Below, piece by piece: positions 8,932 through 16,819 of a stretch of DNA of 64,000 bases. Source of the DNA: Escherichia coli (lineage in GTDB: Bacteria; Pseudomonadota; Gammaproteobacteria; Enterobacterales; Enterobacteriaceae); the NCBI RefSeq assembly GCF_050920415.1, contig NZ_CP169309.1; one strand, given 5' to 3'. A program made the position numbers and the translations under genes. Under the pieces are notes generated by a model that saw only the letters and a program-made list of their open reading frames with translations, was not told the DNA's origin and ran no database searches. Within the stretch, counting starts at the first letter, position 1, and every line of letters begins with the position of its first letter.

Positions 8932-8979
8932 CGATCTGGATCACATTCATTAACAAAATGGTTGTAACCGTTTCCATTG

Positions 8980-9072: not shown

Positions 9073-10113
9073 ATGATCACCATTCGTGATGTAGCGCGTC
9101 AGGCTGGCGTCTCTGTGGCAACGGTTTCCCGGGTGCTCAATAACAGCACGCTGGTCAGTGCCGACACGCGTGAAGCAGTAATGAAAGCAGTGAGCGAGCT
9201 GGATTATCGGCCAAACGCCAATGCCCAGGCGCTGGCAACTCAGGTTAGCGATACCATTGGCGTGGTGGTAATGGACGTTTCTGATGCGTTTTTCGGCGCG
9301 CTGGTAAAAGCGGTGGATCTCGTCGCCCAGCAGCACCAGAAATATGTGCTAATAGGTAATAGCTATCATGAAGCGGAAAAAGAGCGTCATGCCATTGAGG
9401 TGTTAATTCGCCAGCGTTGTAACGCGTTGATTGTTCATTCAAAAGCGTTAAGCGATGATGAATTAGCGCAGTTTATGGATAACATTCCCGGTATGGTGTT
9501 AATCAACCGCGTTGTGCCAGGTTACGCCCATCGTTGCGTTTGCCTGGATAATCTCAGTGGTGCCCGAATGGCCACGCGCATGTTGCTCAATAATGGTCAT
9601 CAACGTATTGGTTATCTTTCTTCCAGCCACGGCATTGAAGATGATGCCATGCGCAAAGCAGGCTGGATGAGTGCGTTGAAAGAGCAGGATATTATTCCGT
9701 CGGAAAGCTGGATTGGCACTGGCACCCCGGACATGCCAGGCGGTGAGGCGGCGATGGTTGAACTGCTGGGGCGCAATCTACAACTTACCGCTGTATTTGC
9801 ATACAACGACAATATGGCCGCTGGCGCACTGACGGCATTAAAAGATAATGGTATTGCGATTCCGTTACATCTCTCAATCATCGGTTTCGATGATATTCCC
9901 ATCGCTCGTTACACCGACCCACAATTAACGACCGTGCGTTATCCTATTGCTTCGATGGCAAAATTAGCTACCGAACTGGCCTTACAAGGGGCAGCAGGCA
10001 ACATTGATCCTCACGCCAGCCACTGTTTTATGCCGACGTTAGTGCGTCGCCATTCTGTCGCAACGCGCCAGAATGCGGCAGCGATCACTAACTCAACAAA
10101 TCAGTCGATGTAA
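9073..10113 (+). CDS. galS: LacI/GalR-family transcriptional repressor of the mgl/gal regulon (isorepressor)
   Basis: N-terminal HTH '[25 protein letters not shown]', LacI-type periplasmic-binding fold, position upstream of mglBAC. Confidence 0.9.
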
Positions 10114-10125
10114 CCGCTTTCAATC

Positions 10126-10141
10126 TGTGAGTGATTTCACA
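10126..10141. promoter_or_regulatory. Consensus CRP binding site TGTGAgtgattTCACA in the galS-mglB intergenic region
   Basis: Perfect match to both CRP half-sites with 6-bp spacer, read in sequence. Confidence 0.5.
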
Positions 10142-10391
10142 GTATATTAACAATGCGATAGCTATGATTGCACCGTTTTAACGCTGTAACCTGCATGTAA
10201 CAGTGAATCATCACTTTCACCGAGGTAATAGCGTCATAACAACAATTAAAGCCTTTTCTGGAGCGTTACCGGGCATGGAAGAACGAATTTTAAAAAGTGA
10301 GCTTCGGCGTTCAGTAACACTTCATTAACTCTACTGCCCCGCCGAGCATTTATCTCAAGCACTACCCTGCATAAGAAAAACCGGAGATACC

Positions 10392-11390
10392 ATGAATAAG
10401 AAGGTGTTAACCCTGTCTGCTGTAATGGCCAGTATGTTATTCGGTGCCACTGCACACGCTGCTGATACCCGTATTGGTGTAACAATCTATAAGTACGACG
10501 ATAACTTTATGTCTGTTGTGCGCAAGGCTATCGAACAAGATGCGAAAGCCGCGCCAGATGTTCAGCTGCTGATGAATGATTCTCAGAATGACCAGTCCAA
10601 GCAGAACGATCAGATCGATGTATTGCTGGCGAAAGGGGTGAAGGCACTGGCGATCAACCTGGTTGACCCGGCAGCTGCGGGTACGGTGATTGAGAAAGCG
10701 CGCGGGCAAAACGTGCCGGTGGTTTTCTTCAACAAAGAACCGTCTCGTAAGGCGCTGGATAGCTACGATAAAGCCTACTATGTCGGCACTGACTCCAAAG
10801 AGTCCGGCATTATTCAGGGCGATTTGATTGCTAAGCATTGGGCGGCAAACCAGGATTGGGATCTCAACAAAGACGGTCAGATTCAATTCGTACTACTGAA
10901 AGGTGAACCGGGCCATCCGGATGCAGAAGCACGCACCACTTACGTGATTAAAGAGCTGAATGACAAAGGCATCAAAACTGAACAGTTACAGTTAGATACC
11001 GCTATGTGGGATACCGCTCAGGCGAAAGATAAGATGGACGCCTGGCTGTCTGGCCCGAACGCCAACAAAATCGAAGTGGTTATCGCCAACAATGATGCGA
11101 TGGCAATGGGCGCAGTAGAAGCACTGAAAGCACACAACAAGTCCAGCATTCCGGTGTTTGGTGTCGATGCGCTGCCAGAAGCTCTGGCACTGGTGAAATC
11201 TGGTGCACTGGCGGGCACCGTATTGAATGATGCTAACAACCAGGCGAAAGCGACCTTTGATCTGGCGAAAAACCTGGCCGATGGCAAAGGTGCGGCTGAT
11301 GGTACCAACTGGAAAATCGACAACAAAGTGGTCCGCGTACCTTATGTTGGCGTAGATAAAGACAACCTGGCTGAATTCAGCAAGAAATAA
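10392..11390 (+). CDS. mglB: Periplasmic galactose/glucose-binding protein, 332 aa
   Basis: Signal peptide followed by periplasmic-binding-protein sequence; conserved mglBAC order. Confidence 0.95.
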
Positions 11391-11398
11391 GACTGATT

Positions 11399-11428
11399 GG
11401 GCGCAGTCGTTTACTGCGCCCTTATTGT
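11399..11428 (+). terminator. Intra-operon hairpin (gggcgcagt-cgttt-actgcgccc) followed by T-rich tract between mglB and mglA; likely partial terminator/attenuator
   Basis: Perfect 9-bp stem with 5-nt loop read in sequence, then 'cttattgtat'. Confidence 0.5.
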
Positions 11429-11450
11429 ATGGCCAACAAGGTAAAATTAT

Positions 11451-12971
11451 ATGGTCAGCTCAACGACTCCGTCTTCCGGGGAATACTTGTTGGAAATGAG
11501 CGGTATCAACAAGTCTTTTCCGGGTGTTAAGGCACTTGATAACGTTAATTTAAAAGTCCGGCCACATTCTATCCATGCATTAATGGGGGAAAACGGCGCA
11601 GGAAAATCAACATTATTAAAATGCCTGTTTGGTATTTATCAAAAAGACTCCGGCACCATTTTGTTCCAGGGTAAAGAGATCGATTTCCATTCTGCCAAAG
11701 AAGCACTGGAAAATGGTATTTCGATGGTACACCAGGAATTAAACCTGGTATTACAACGTTCGGTGATGGACAACATGTGGCTGGGGCGGTATCCCACCAA
11801 AGGCATGTTTGTCGATCAGGACAAAATGTACCGCGAAACCAAAGCGATTTTTGATGAGCTGGATATTGATATCGATCCGCGTGCGCGCGTCGGCACATTA
11901 TCCGTTTCGCAAATGCAGATGATCGAAATCGCCAAAGCGTTTTCCTATAACGCGAAAATTGTGATTATGGATGAACCGACATCTTCGTTAACTGAAAAAG
12001 AGGTCAATCATCTTTTCACTATTATTCGTAAATTAAAAGAGCGCGGCTGCGGTATTGTTTATATCTCGCATAAAATGGAAGAAATCTTCCAGTTATGTGA
12101 TGAAGTCACCGTATTGCGCGACGGTCAGTGGATCGCTACCGAACCGCTGGCAGGGCTAACGATGGACAAGATCATCGCCATGATGGTTGGACGCTCTCTT
12201 AACCAGCGTTTCCCTGACAAAGAAAACAAGCCGGGCGAAGTGATTCTGGAAGTGCGTAATCTGACGTCGCTGCGCCAGCCGTCGATTCGCGATGTCTCGT
12301 TTGATCTGCATAAAGGGGAGATCCTCGGTATTGCCGGTCTGGTGGGGGCGAAACGTACCGATATTGTTGAGACGTTATTTGGTATTCGCGAGAAATCGGC
12401 TGGCACCATTACGTTGCACGGTAAAAAGATCAATAACCATAACGCTAACGAAGCCATAAACCACGGATTTGCACTGGTAACTGAAGAGCGCCGCTCAACG
12501 GGAATTTATGCCTATCTGGATATTGGCTTTAACTCGTTAATTTCCAATATCCGCAACTACAAAAATAAAGTTGGCTTGCTGGATAACTCGCGGATGAAAA
12601 GCGATACCCAGTGGGTAATTGATTCGATGCGGGTAAAAACGCCGGGACATCGTACGCAAATTGGTTCACTCTCCGGCGGTAATCAGCAAAAGGTAATTAT
12701 TGGGCGCTGGCTGCTAACGCAACCAGAAATATTAATGCTCGATGAACCAACGCGCGGTATTGATGTCGGAGCGAAGTTTGAAATTTATCAGTTAATTGCC
12801 GAACTGGCGAAGAAAGGCAAGGGGATTATTATTATTTCCTCCGAAATGCCAGAGTTGTTAGGGATAACAGACCGTATTCTGGTCATGAGCAATGGTCTCG
12901 TTTCCGGAATTGTCGATACAAAAACAACAACGCAAAACGAAATTCTGCGTCTTGCGTCTTTGCACCTTTAA
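11451..12971 (+). CDS. mglA: Galactose/methyl-galactoside ABC transporter ATP-binding protein (duplicated ABC domains), 506 aa
   Basis: Two Walker A motifs ('GENGAGKST' and second-domain equivalent), two LSGG signatures; sugar-ABC architecture. Confidence 0.95.
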
Positions 12972-12986
12972 GATTAGGGGCCTCCC

Positions 12987-13997
12987 ATGAGTGCGTTAAA
13001 TAAGAAAAGTTTTCTTACTTACCTGAAAGAGGGCGGTATTTACGTCGTTCTTTTAGTTTTGCTGGCGATTATTATTTTCCAGGACCCAACTTTTTTAAGT
13101 CTGTTGAACTTAAGTAATATTCTCACCCAGTCATCGGTGCGTATTATTATCGCGCTTGGTGTGGCAGGATTAATTGTCACCCAGGGGACCGACCTTTCTG
13201 CGGGACGTCAGGTAGGGCTGGCAGCCGTGGTGGCAGCGACGTTATTGCAGTCCATGGATAACGCTAACAAAGTATTCCCGGAAATGGCGACGATGCCGAT
13301 TGCGCTGGTAATTCTGATTGTCTGTGCCATTGGCGCGGTGATCGGTTTGATCAACGGCCTGATTATCGCTTATCTCAACGTGACGCCATTCATTACCACG
13401 CTCGGCACGATGATTATCGTCTACGGCATCAACTCGCTCTATTACGACTTTGTCGGGGCGTCGCCAATTTCTGGTTTTGACAGTGGCTTCTCTACCTTTG
13501 CTCAGGGCTTTGTTGCGCTGGGGAGCTTCCGTCTCTCTTACATCACTTTCTACGCGTTGATTGCGGTGGCATTCGTCTGGGTGTTGTGGAACAAAACCCG
13601 CTTCGGCAAGAACATTTTTGCCATTGGCGGTAACCCGGAAGCGGCGAAAGTTTCTGGTGTCAACGTTGGCCTGAACCTGCTGATGATCTACGCGTTGTCT
13701 GGTGTGTTCTATGCCTTTGGCGGGATGTTAGAAGCCGGACGTATCGGCTCTGCCACCAACAACCTCGGCTTTATGTATGAGCTGGATGCTATCGCAGCGT
13801 GTGTGGTGGGCGGTGTATCGTTCAGCGGTGGTGTAGGGACGGTGATTGGTGTGGTGACCGGGGTAATTATTTTTACCGTCATCAACTATGGCCTGACGTA
13901 CATCGGCGTAAACCCATACTGGCAGTACATCATCAAAGGGGCGATTATTATCTTCGCCGTAGCGCTGGATTCACTGAAATACGCGCGTAAGAAATGA
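12987..13997 (+). CDS. mglC: Galactose/methyl-galactoside ABC transporter permease, 336 aa
   Basis: Polytopic permease directly downstream of mglA. Confidence 0.95.
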   Translation: MSALNKKSFLTYLKEGGIYVVLLVLLAIIIFQDPTFLSLLNLSNILTQSSVRIIIALGVAGLIVTQGTDLSAGRQVGLAAVVAATLLQSMDNANKVFPEMATMPIALVILIVCAIGAVIGLINGLIIAYLNVTPFITTLGTMIIVYGINSLYYDFVGASPISGFDSGFSTFAQGFVALGSFRLSYITFYALIAVAFVWVLWNKTRFGKNIFAIGGNPEAAKVSGVNVGLNLLMIYALSGVFYAFGGMLEAGRIGSATNNLGFMYELDAIAACVVGGVSFSGGVGTVIGVVTGVIIFTVINYGLTYIGVNPYWQYIIKGAIIIFAVALDSLKYARKK

Positions 13998-14010
13998 TGT
14001 GAATGTGGGT

Positions 14011-14062
14011 ATTGCCGGATGCGCCGCATCCGGCAATCGGTGCCAAATGCCGGATGCGTCTC
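14011..14062. repeat. REP (repetitive extragenic palindromic) element between mglC and preA
   Basis: Characteristic gccggatgcg / cgcatccggc palindromic units. Confidence 0.6.
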
Positions 14063-14067
14063 TGATT

Positions 14068-15303
14068 TTACAACGTTACCGGGTGTTCTTTCTCTCCCTT
14101 CTTAAACTTCACTTCCCCGAGATCAATACAACCAACCGGGCAAACATGACCACAAAGCAGACAACCCACGCACTTCTCGGTATTACAATGCGGTGTGCGC
14201 GTTTTCTCGCTCCATTCCATCGCCTGGTGACCGCCGTCGTAACAGGAAATATAACAGCGTCCACAGCCAACACATTTATCGAGATTGATATGGGGATAGA
14301 CGATATAGCTACGGTCTAAATCTTCCGCCGGGACAATATTGTGATTCGCCAGACCTACCATCTCCTGCAACGAATCAAATCCCTGATCGGCGAGATAATG
14401 CGATAACCCGCTCGCCATATCTTCCACTATCCGATACCCGTACTGCATAATGCCGGTGGTCACCTGTAACGTTGCTGCGCCGAGCAATAAAAACTCTGCC
14501 GCATCTTCCCAGGTTTCAATACCGCCGATACCGCTGATCGGGAAATCGCGCAGCTCTGGATGGGTGCGCATTTGCTGAATAAAGCGTAGGGCGATCGGTT
14601 TTACCGCTTTACCGGAATATCCGGAAATACTCGATTTACCGTTAACGATCGGCATACCAATTTTCTGATTAAGATCGATATTGGTGATGGATTTAACGGT
14701 ATTAATCGCCGCAATGCCATCTGCGCCGCCGCGCTTCGCAGCCAGCGCCACTTCGCACATATCACCGATATTCGGCGTCATCTTCGCCAGCATCGGCAGC
14801 GTAGAACCACGTTTCACTGCCCGACAATATTTTTCTACCAGCTCCGGGCTTTGCCCGACATCGCTACCCATCGCATGAGAAGTCATTTGCGGACAGGAGA
14901 AGTTACACTCAATCATATCGGCACCAGCTTCTTGCACCAGGCGCGCCAGCTCTTCCCACTGCTGCTCATTTTCCCCCATGATTGAAGCTATCAATACTTT
15001 GTCCGGATAATCTTCTTTCAGCCGACGCAGGGCGGCCAGATTCTCCTCCAGAGGATGCTCGGCAATCTGCTCCATATTTTTGAAGCCGATAAAACCGGTA
15101 TCTTCTTTCACCAGATGATCAAAACGTGGTGAGACTTCGTTGGCGATAAAAAAGCCGATCGTTTTAAATACCACGCCACCCCAGCCCGTGTCGTAGGCTT
15201 TGGCGCACATCTCATAGCAGTTGCCTACCGGCGAAGAAGAGAGGCAGAACGGGTTGGGAAACTTCACGCCGCAAAAGGTAATCGAAAGATCTTTCGTTAA
15301 CAT
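14068..15303 (-). CDS. preA: NAD-dependent dihydropyrimidine dehydrogenase subunit PreA (dihydroorotate-dehydrogenase-like plus 2x[4Fe-4S] ferredoxin domain)
   Basis: TIM-barrel DHOD-like sequence with C-terminal ferredoxin cysteine clusters ('[11 protein letters not shown]', '[12 protein letters not shown]'); overlaps preT stop. Confidence 0.9.
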
Positions 15304-16670: not shown

Positions 16671-16819
16671 AAATATTGCGTGCTGATATTAAGGCTAAGC
16701 GTGTGGGGAAATTTAAACTGTGAAAGAATTCACAAATAGCTGCGGTTCAGAATGTTATATCCGCAGCTTATTGACTGAAGTAATAATTATTCTCAATAAT
16801 TAACAGGGGAGGGACAATA

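Follow-up and report, generated by a model that had tools for sequence, protein, structure and literature searches.

The galS-mglBAC control region of Escherichia coli: a GalR/GalS operator, a CRP-dependent promoter, a long leader and an mglB-mglA hairpin

REP elements are a repeated family of sequences that have no U tail and serve as barriers to exonucleases. Stem-loops of this family reportedly lie between the cistrons of binding-protein operons, at malE-malF and hisJ-hisQ, as is said to have been found by Newbury et al. in 1987. As in mgl, the gene for the binding protein comes first in these operons and a stable hairpin follows it, the upstream mRNA accumulates, and the binding protein is in excess over the membrane components. 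The malE-malF and hisJ-hisQ hairpins are the closest analogues of the hairpin between mglB and mglA, and would serve the same purpose. The mgl hairpin differs from them in being unique in the stretch analysed here, in having no REP motif and in carrying a U-rich tail with an RNA 3' end inside it. The galETKM operon is a second relative, with its GalR/GalS operators, CRP at galP1 and Spot 42 on galK. In gal and mgl alike CRP activates, GalR/GalS repress, the CRP-repressed Spot 42 acts after transcription, and expression within the operon is discoordinate. However, gal has two operators (OE and OI) with HU-dependent looping, whereas mgl has one operator beside the CRP site. Spot 42 acts on the third cistron in gal and on the leader of the first cistron in mgl, and the TGTAAC half-sites that mgl carries at +11 to +27 are without a right half. 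The mglBAC control region of K-12 itself is said to have been described by Hogg et al. in 1991, by Weickert & Adhya in 1993 and in EcoCyc under mglBp.

The window, which is the whole 64,000-nucleotide stretch of DNA analysed here, is by its sequence a piece of the E. coli chromosome that includes galS-mglBAC, and the region studied is the native mglBAC control region. Of 5426 complete E. coli genomes, 5425 have a match to positions 9900-11600, where galS, mglB and mglA are annotated. The gene order is that of K-12: folE, yeiB, galS, mglB, mglA and mglC, followed by the convergent preA and preT. Over 10050-11480 the window is 97% identical to K-12 MG1655. The operator, CRP site, -10 hexamer, Spot 42 block, ribosome-binding site and hairpin stem are all identical to those of K-12. 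The differences are seven substitutions in the first 69 nt of the leader, where the predicted fold is kept, a 1-bp deletion at about 10253, and the loop of the mglB-mglA hairpin, which is CGTTT in the window and CTATT in K-12; the 148 nt of leader that follow the first 69 have no substitutions. Among the 5426 genomes, 5 match 9900-11600 at at least 99% identity and 5419 at 95-99%; the best match, at 100%, is strain MFDS1022581. Because only 5 of 5426 genomes reach 99% over this 1.7 kb, the window comes from an uncommon E. coli lineage. For conservation we used the mglB locus from 80 Enterobacteriaceae species, and the identity figures come from the 75 non-Escherichia sequences among them.

The features discussed below are as follows; the -10 hexamer, the A-rich stretch and the Shine-Dalgarno element were read directly from the DNA.

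9073-10113: galS, ending in the stop codon TAA at 10111-10113
10108-10123, no strand: GalR/GalS operator of mgl, ATGTAACCGCTTTCAA, overlapping the galS stop codon
10126-10141, no strand: CRP site TGTGAgtgattTCACA, centre 10133.5, exact consensus
10163-10168, plus strand: -10 hexamer TATGAT of mglBp
10175, plus strand: probable transcription start, a G (+/-2 nt), placed from the position of the -10 hexamer
10175-10391, plus strand: 5' untranslated leader of mglB, about 217 nt
10175-10243, plus strand: 5'-terminal imperfect stem-loop predicted by folding, pairs spanning 10175-10240 (66 nt)
10351-10370, plus strand: predicted Spot 42 pairing site (UAUCUC...UACCCUGC), pairing with Spot 42 nt 1-16
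10373-10381, plus strand: A-rich stretch AAGAAAAAC
10383-10386, plus strand: Shine-Dalgarno GGAG, with the mglB start codon at 10392-10394
10392-11390, plus strand: mglB, periplasmic galactose/glucose-binding protein, 332 aa
11399-11430, plus strand: mglB-mglA intercistronic hairpin with its tail TTATTGTAT; stem 11399-11407 / 11413-11421, loop CGTTT
11451-12971, plus strand: mglA coding sequence, with ribosome-binding site AAGGT at 11438-11442
12987-13997, plus strand: mglC, 3' of mglA

The intergenic region between galS, which ends at 10113, and mglB, which starts at 10392, is 278 bp long. The best overall explanation of the locus combines the operator, a class II CRP promoter, a leader with a Spot 42 site and the mglB-mglA hairpin, and we put its probability at about 85%. 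Everything central in this control region is already known; only the 5' stem-loop and the short RNA that ends behind it are uncharacterised. A preliminary description of the window had treated 10114-10391 as one long leader. This holds for the transcribed part, about 10175-10391, while the first ~61 bp are operator and promoter. To its account we add three elements: a GalR/GalS operator over the stop codon of galS, a Spot 42/Hfq site in the leader, and the 5' stem-loop, which is followed by a 3' end of its own.

The operator ATGTAACCGCTTTCAA has two mismatches to GTGNAANCGNTTNCAC, both at the outermost positions. It fits the 16-bp dyad GTGNAANC.GNTTNCAC with the central CG intact, a pattern that by itself is not significant in the window (5 matches against 3.05 expected). 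The sequence is that of the K-12 GalR site TTGAAAGCGGTTACAT at 2240618-2240633, which was bound by GalR in ChIP-chip (PMC5110547). Derepressing mutations selected in chemostats strike the central CG of the operator, 3 bp past the end of galS, which by our own coordinate conversion is 10115/10116 in the window. Adaptive mutations of the 280-bp region concentrate in the first 20 bp after galS (PMC12366229). Operator identity to the window is 96% over the 75 non-Escherichia species; as baselines, identity is 45% in the 16 nt of galS that precede the operator and 60% at mglB third codon positions. The operator centre is 18 bp from the centre of the CRP site and would lie at about -59.5 from the probable start. 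When galactose is absent, GalS or GalR would repress at this single mgl operator.

Several other operator-like sequences occur at the locus. Two galS operators known from K-12 ChIP-chip, TTGTAACCGTTTCCAT and GTGGCAACGGTTTCCC, are present at 8962-8977 and 9115-9130, one upstream of galS and one just inside it. TGTAAC, the left half of the operator, occurs in two direct copies 11 bp apart at 10185-10201 (+11 to +27), and ATGTAAC is almost invariant in the 80 species. A second operator in the leader was considered at ATGTAAC 10195-10201 and rejected; the right half-site is missing, and the centre of ATGTAAC lies out of helical phase with the operator, 87 bp away. Deeper in the leader, at 10265-10269 and 10314-10318, are a further GTAAC and its complementary GTTAC. 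A predicted GalR site inside mglB, at 11193-11208, reads GTGAAATCCGGTGCAC in K-12 and GTGAAATCTGGTGCAC in the window, so that the window strain has TG in place of the central CG, on which operator function critically depends.

The CRP site TGTGAGTGATTTCACA lies 266 to 251 bp upstream of the mglB ATG. A consensus CRP site at 10126-10141, about 250 bp upstream of mglB, had already been pointed out in the preliminary description; the match is exact and the coordinates are right. The distance of about 250 bp to the ATG arises because the 5' UTR lies between. The exact palindrome TGTGA-N6-TCACA occurs twice in the 64-kb window, against 0.02 expected from shuffles. The second copy, TGTGAAAGAATTCACA, is at 16719-16734, 184-199 bp upstream of the minus-strand start of preT (yeiT), and yeiT has been listed among the known CRP targets from genomic SELEX (PMC3105977). 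At mgl the palindrome is perfect in all 80 species, 237-268 bp from the ATG, with differences confined to the 6-bp spacer; identity of the whole site to the window is 88% over the 75 non-Escherichia sequences. The palindrome at 10126-10141 is the annotated CRP activator site of mglBp. The mgl promoter shows cAMP-dependent reporter activity (PMC2516365), and footprints at mglBp from a massively parallel reporter assay (MPRA) place the CRP and RNAP sites side by side (PMC13228646). The catabolite control of mgl proposed earlier is supported, acting through the site at 10126-10141, by this annotation, the reporter and footprint data and the perfect palindrome in 80/80 species. The dependence of mgl on CRP and on GalS is known from the cited work.

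The promoter sits close to the CRP site; a distant promoter, which would have contradicted the earlier reading, is not what the sequence shows. The -10 hexamer is 99.6% identical to the window across the 75 non-Escherichia sequences, and the first base of this almost invariant element is 29.5 bp downstream of the CRP centre. There is no -35 element; CAGTAT at 10140-10145 matches TTGACA at only one of six positions. The spacing and the missing -35 together point to class II geometry, with the CRP site at about -41.5, and predict a start at G10175. A consensus promoter scan of 9900-11600 found no promoter-like site, as expected of an activator-dependent promoter, and it lends no support either. 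Three published observations agree with a start near 10175. The '+30' position of the MPRA study, where a -10 is one mutation from consensus (PMC13228646), reads AATAAT in K-12 and corresponds to 10206-10211 in the window. An RNA 3' end stays in the 5'-UTR list of Adams et al. (2021) if a dRNA-seq transcription start lies upstream of it, farther than 20 nt but within 200 nt, and a leader 3' end corresponding to window position 10243 is in that list. The mglBAC 5' UTR is about 250 nt according to Csiszovszki et al. (PMC3119520). In the proposed mechanism the CRP site would stand in for the missing -35 of a sigma-70 promoter with -10 TATGAT, cAMP-CRP would activate as at a class II promoter, and transcription would start near 10175. 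A GTGA-N4-TCAC palindrome at 10203-10214 was considered as a second CRP site and rejected for its wrong spacing.

The preliminary description had also noted a strong hairpin with a T-tract between mglB and mglA. The hairpin is there, as GGGCGCAGT-cgttt-ACTGCGCCC at 11399-11421, with nine pairs, seven of them G-C, and a 5-nt loop, and the tail TTATTGTAT follows the stem directly; the T-tract is interrupted, with 5 T in 8 and a longest run of 2. The 71-nt hairpin region folds at -20.4 kcal/mol (z = -2.1). By itself a loose terminator scan is not significant (4 matches against 2.0 +/- 1.5 expected). We take the hairpin as real because it is conserved with compensatory changes and coincides with a mapped RNA 3' end in K-12. 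It is present in essentially all 80 species. An alignment of 38 species gives nine consensus pairs, five of which have compensatory double changes. The lower stem GGGCG/CGCCC is fixed and the upper pairs co-vary (AGT/ACT, AAT/ATT, GAT/ATC, TATT/AATA and AAC/GTT).

In the K-12 Term-seq data of Adams et al., the 'primary' 3' end of mglB is at 2239314, with 147,960 reads in LB at OD 0.4 and 77,439 in LB at OD 2.0. This position corresponds to 11426 in the window, 5 nt past the stem and inside the U-rich tail. Comparison with Term-seq after mglB had been suggested as a check, and the published data do hold a strong 3' end there, seen in LB and missing from the M63-glucose sheet; its loss in glucose medium is expected of a catabolite-repressed operon. 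In the same study the internal 3' end in mglA has 24,034 reads and that in mglC 38,353, so the mglB end has 4-6 times as many. The differential expression proposed for mglBAC, with mglB above mglA and mglC, is supported by the strong K-12 3' end 5 nt after the hairpin and by the compensatory conservation.

A Term-seq end looks alike whether it comes from termination or from processing; in the most likely reading the hairpin would act as a partial terminator ('attenuator') and also protect the 3' end. Any termination can only be partial, since neither mglA nor mglC has its own promoter. The hairpin and its U-rich tail would stop part of the polymerases and then shield the 3' end from exonucleases. 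An mglB-only RNA of ~1.25 kb would then outnumber the full mglBAC message, and the binding protein would be in excess over MglA and MglC. Termination and 3'-end protection are not exclusive.

In the alternative that survives best, the hairpin is not a terminator at all. Read-through would be full, the RNA would be cleaved within the intercistronic region or past it, and the hairpin would block 3'-to-5' exonucleases, so that the mglB segment outlives mglA-mglC as at the malE-malF REP hairpins. The interrupted U tract, with no run above 2 in the window, fits this reading, and so does a 3' end just 5 nt from the stem, where trimming to a barrier would leave it. To Adams et al., a 3' end that is not Rho-dependent and not intrinsic probably stems from processing. 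Several species also keep the hairpin without U's after it, among them E. albertii (AAATTGTAT) and S. enterica arizonae (TGAAACTG), suggesting that termination is not the sole conserved role. However, most species have U's immediately behind the stem. The commonest tail, TTTTATAAC, has four straight after it, and 62 of 68 species have at least 3 T in 8, a pattern that selection for termination would retain. The mapped 3' end also falls within the U-rich tail. Nor is the hairpin a REP element; it occurs once in the window and lacks the REP motif GCCGGATG...CATCCGGC, of which 26 REP-like examples are found elsewhere in the window. We regard protection without termination as possible but somewhat unlikely, and prefer partial termination followed by protection.

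At the other end of the operon, a REP-like palindrome, TTGCCGGATGCGCCGCATCCGGCAA, follows mglC at 14011-14035, with another GCCGGATG at 14049. The stretch from mglC to the convergent preA (13995-14068) has no U-tract terminator, and the mglC-preA spacer is 70 bp in the window against 243 bp in K-12. The ORF-internal sRNA 'mglC int' has its K-12 3' end at 2237260 (Adams et al. 2021). Its 3' end region is present at ~13455-13483 (3' end about 13480), identical over the 29 nt compared.

The leader is 200-220 nt long in 79 of the 80 species (median 216). Its 3' part is strongly conserved; 10373-10394, covering the A-rich stretch, the Shine-Dalgarno element and the start codon, has 89% identity across genera, and the block ACTACCCTGCAT, which contains the Spot 42 pairing site, is almost invariant. 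The best Spot 42 duplex in the leader, -16 kcal/mol at 10351-10370, is near the ribosome-binding site. This value comes from seed-restricted scans, as full-length duplex folding gave meaningless whole-molecule duplexes. In Salmonella, Spot 42 represses mglB by base pairing with a conserved 5' UTR site; the site is downstream of an Hfq CLIP peak, and compensatory mutants confirm the pairing (PMC5207318). Spot 42 regulation of mglB is thus validated in Salmonella and predicted for the window strain. The leader would serve as a platform for post-transcriptional control, on which Spot 42 with Hfq would lower translation and stability next to the ribosome-binding site. CRP acts positively on mgl and negatively on spf, which completes a CRP/Spot 42 feed-forward loop.

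The middle of the leader, 10244-10350, has 71-72% identity across genera, above the 60% baseline, and is predicted to be unstructured (z about 0). RNAalifold found no consensus structure for the whole leader in 81 sequences, and an Rfam covariance-model scan of 9900-11700 gave noise only, even at E <= 10, and no match near any gathering score. An invariant CUUCGG at 10302-10307 is complementary to CCGGAG in the Shine-Dalgarno region (10381-10386) and to GCCGA at 10341-10345, upstream of the Spot 42 site, and these pairings could be alternatives. All partners are invariant and so carry no covariation. Comparing every alignment column with every other for conserved helices in the leader gave a large number of 4-bp matches between invariant blocks, indistinguishable from chance, and the CUUCGG/Shine-Dalgarno pairing is one of them. 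The leader also holds a 17-codon ORF, MEERILKSELRRSVTLH, at 10275-10328 with GGAG 11 nt upstream. As a conserved upstream ORF it was rejected, for its ATG is found only in Escherichia and other genera have CACGGAAGA. No support emerged for Rho-dependent attenuation in the leader either; the 3' part of the leader is C-rich (C/G about 2), yet the published Rho score is 0.44.

The first part of the leader shows a different pattern, with a stable predicted fold and a sequence that drifts. The 5' stem-loop has a minimum free energy of -20.1 kcal/mol in the window (z -3.9), and z is -4.5 in K-12; in each case 0 of 200 shuffles folded as well. Over 81 sequences the mean z is -2.1 for leader nt 1-70 and -0.1, +0.3, -1.1 and +0.9 for later windows, and the untranscribed region of the CRP palindrome likewise has a mean z of -2.1, so a DNA palindrome can mimic this fold signal. 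The named structure is 76% paired across sequences, compared with 34-55% when it is slid along them, and its basal GUUU/AAAC and apical GUGA/UCAC helices are about 90% paired. The predicted pairing begins exactly at the probable mgl +1 in 79 species. Sequence identity is 58% across genera, against 60% at mglB third codon positions, which is about neutral. Covariation is weak, as the number of double-change pairs is not above shuffles. RNAalifold on the first 76 nt of the leader found no consensus structure, and covariance-model re-alignment to the named structure did not raise the pair counts. The stem-loop is therefore a prediction, supported by a stable fold with weak covariation.

The stem-loop is followed closely by a discrete RNA 3' end. 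In the K-12 Term-seq data of Adams et al. this end is at 2240498, with a read count of 92,182 in LB at OD 0.4, a Rho score of 0.44 and an intrinsic-terminator score of 1.47 (threshold 3), and it is classed as 'orphan'. It corresponds to 10243 in the window, leader position +69, 3 nt past the hairpin. Its abundance is on a par with that of the mglB 3' end and it has no terminator signature. By the general view of Adams et al. on ends that are neither Rho-dependent nor intrinsic, it is most likely a processing product. The short RNA may also be a decay intermediate. We offer tentatively, and as a rather doubtful proposal, that the first ~69 nt of the mglB leader are a functional RNA element in their own right, whose fold and position are kept despite neutral drift. 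The 5' leader of ompA offers a comparison. It has a 5'-terminal stabilising stem-loop, and mgl resembles it in a structure predicted from the first transcribed nucleotide, a long leader and an abundant mRNA. The mgl element differs in that its imperfect hairpin is long (66 nt) and closely followed by a discrete 3' end, and is known from a predicted fold.

The 3' end and the stem-loop might instead mark the end of the galS mRNA and serve galS rather than the mgl transcript. The end is on the same strand, 130 nt past galS, and there is no terminator-like site between the galS stop at 10113 and 10243, so galS would have no terminator of its own; the 'orphan' class of the end is in line with this as well. 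However, the end stays in the 5'-UTR list of Adams et al., which demands a mapped start upstream, its 92,182 reads are in the range of the mglB 3' end, and the predicted pairing starts at the probable mgl +1, and not elsewhere, in 79 species. We find a galS role unlikely, and galS and mgl origins of the 10243 end could coexist.

It is highly improbable that expression, or the excess of mglB, comes from extra promoters, be it a second start in the leader with CRP at a distance or an internal promoter before mglA; the K-12 leader is indeed one mutation from a consensus -10 at about +30 (AATAAT), where MPRA mutants start, and TAAAAT lies at 11442-11447 just before mglA, but the +30 element fires only after mutation and is weaker in the window (AATCAT), TAAAAT is so close to the mglA ATG (4 nt) that a transcript from it would have no ribosome-binding site, the scan of 9900-11600 holds no promoter-like site, the MPRA RNAP footprint is beside CRP, and the invariant -10 stands at class II spacing.

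If the 5' element is functional, it could govern how stable the mgl mRNA is, be the site of a regulated early stop or cleavage, or work as a small RNA or sponge. It might then, with the conserved sequence in the middle of the leader, account for the length of 200-220 nt across the family. In chemostats, adaptation to limiting glucose targets the mgl locus above all. Within 1.4 kb the mgl locus is a textbook case of layered control of a high-affinity sugar transporter, combining its specific repressor with CRP as global activator, a feed-forward loop through an sRNA and control of stoichiometry within the operon.
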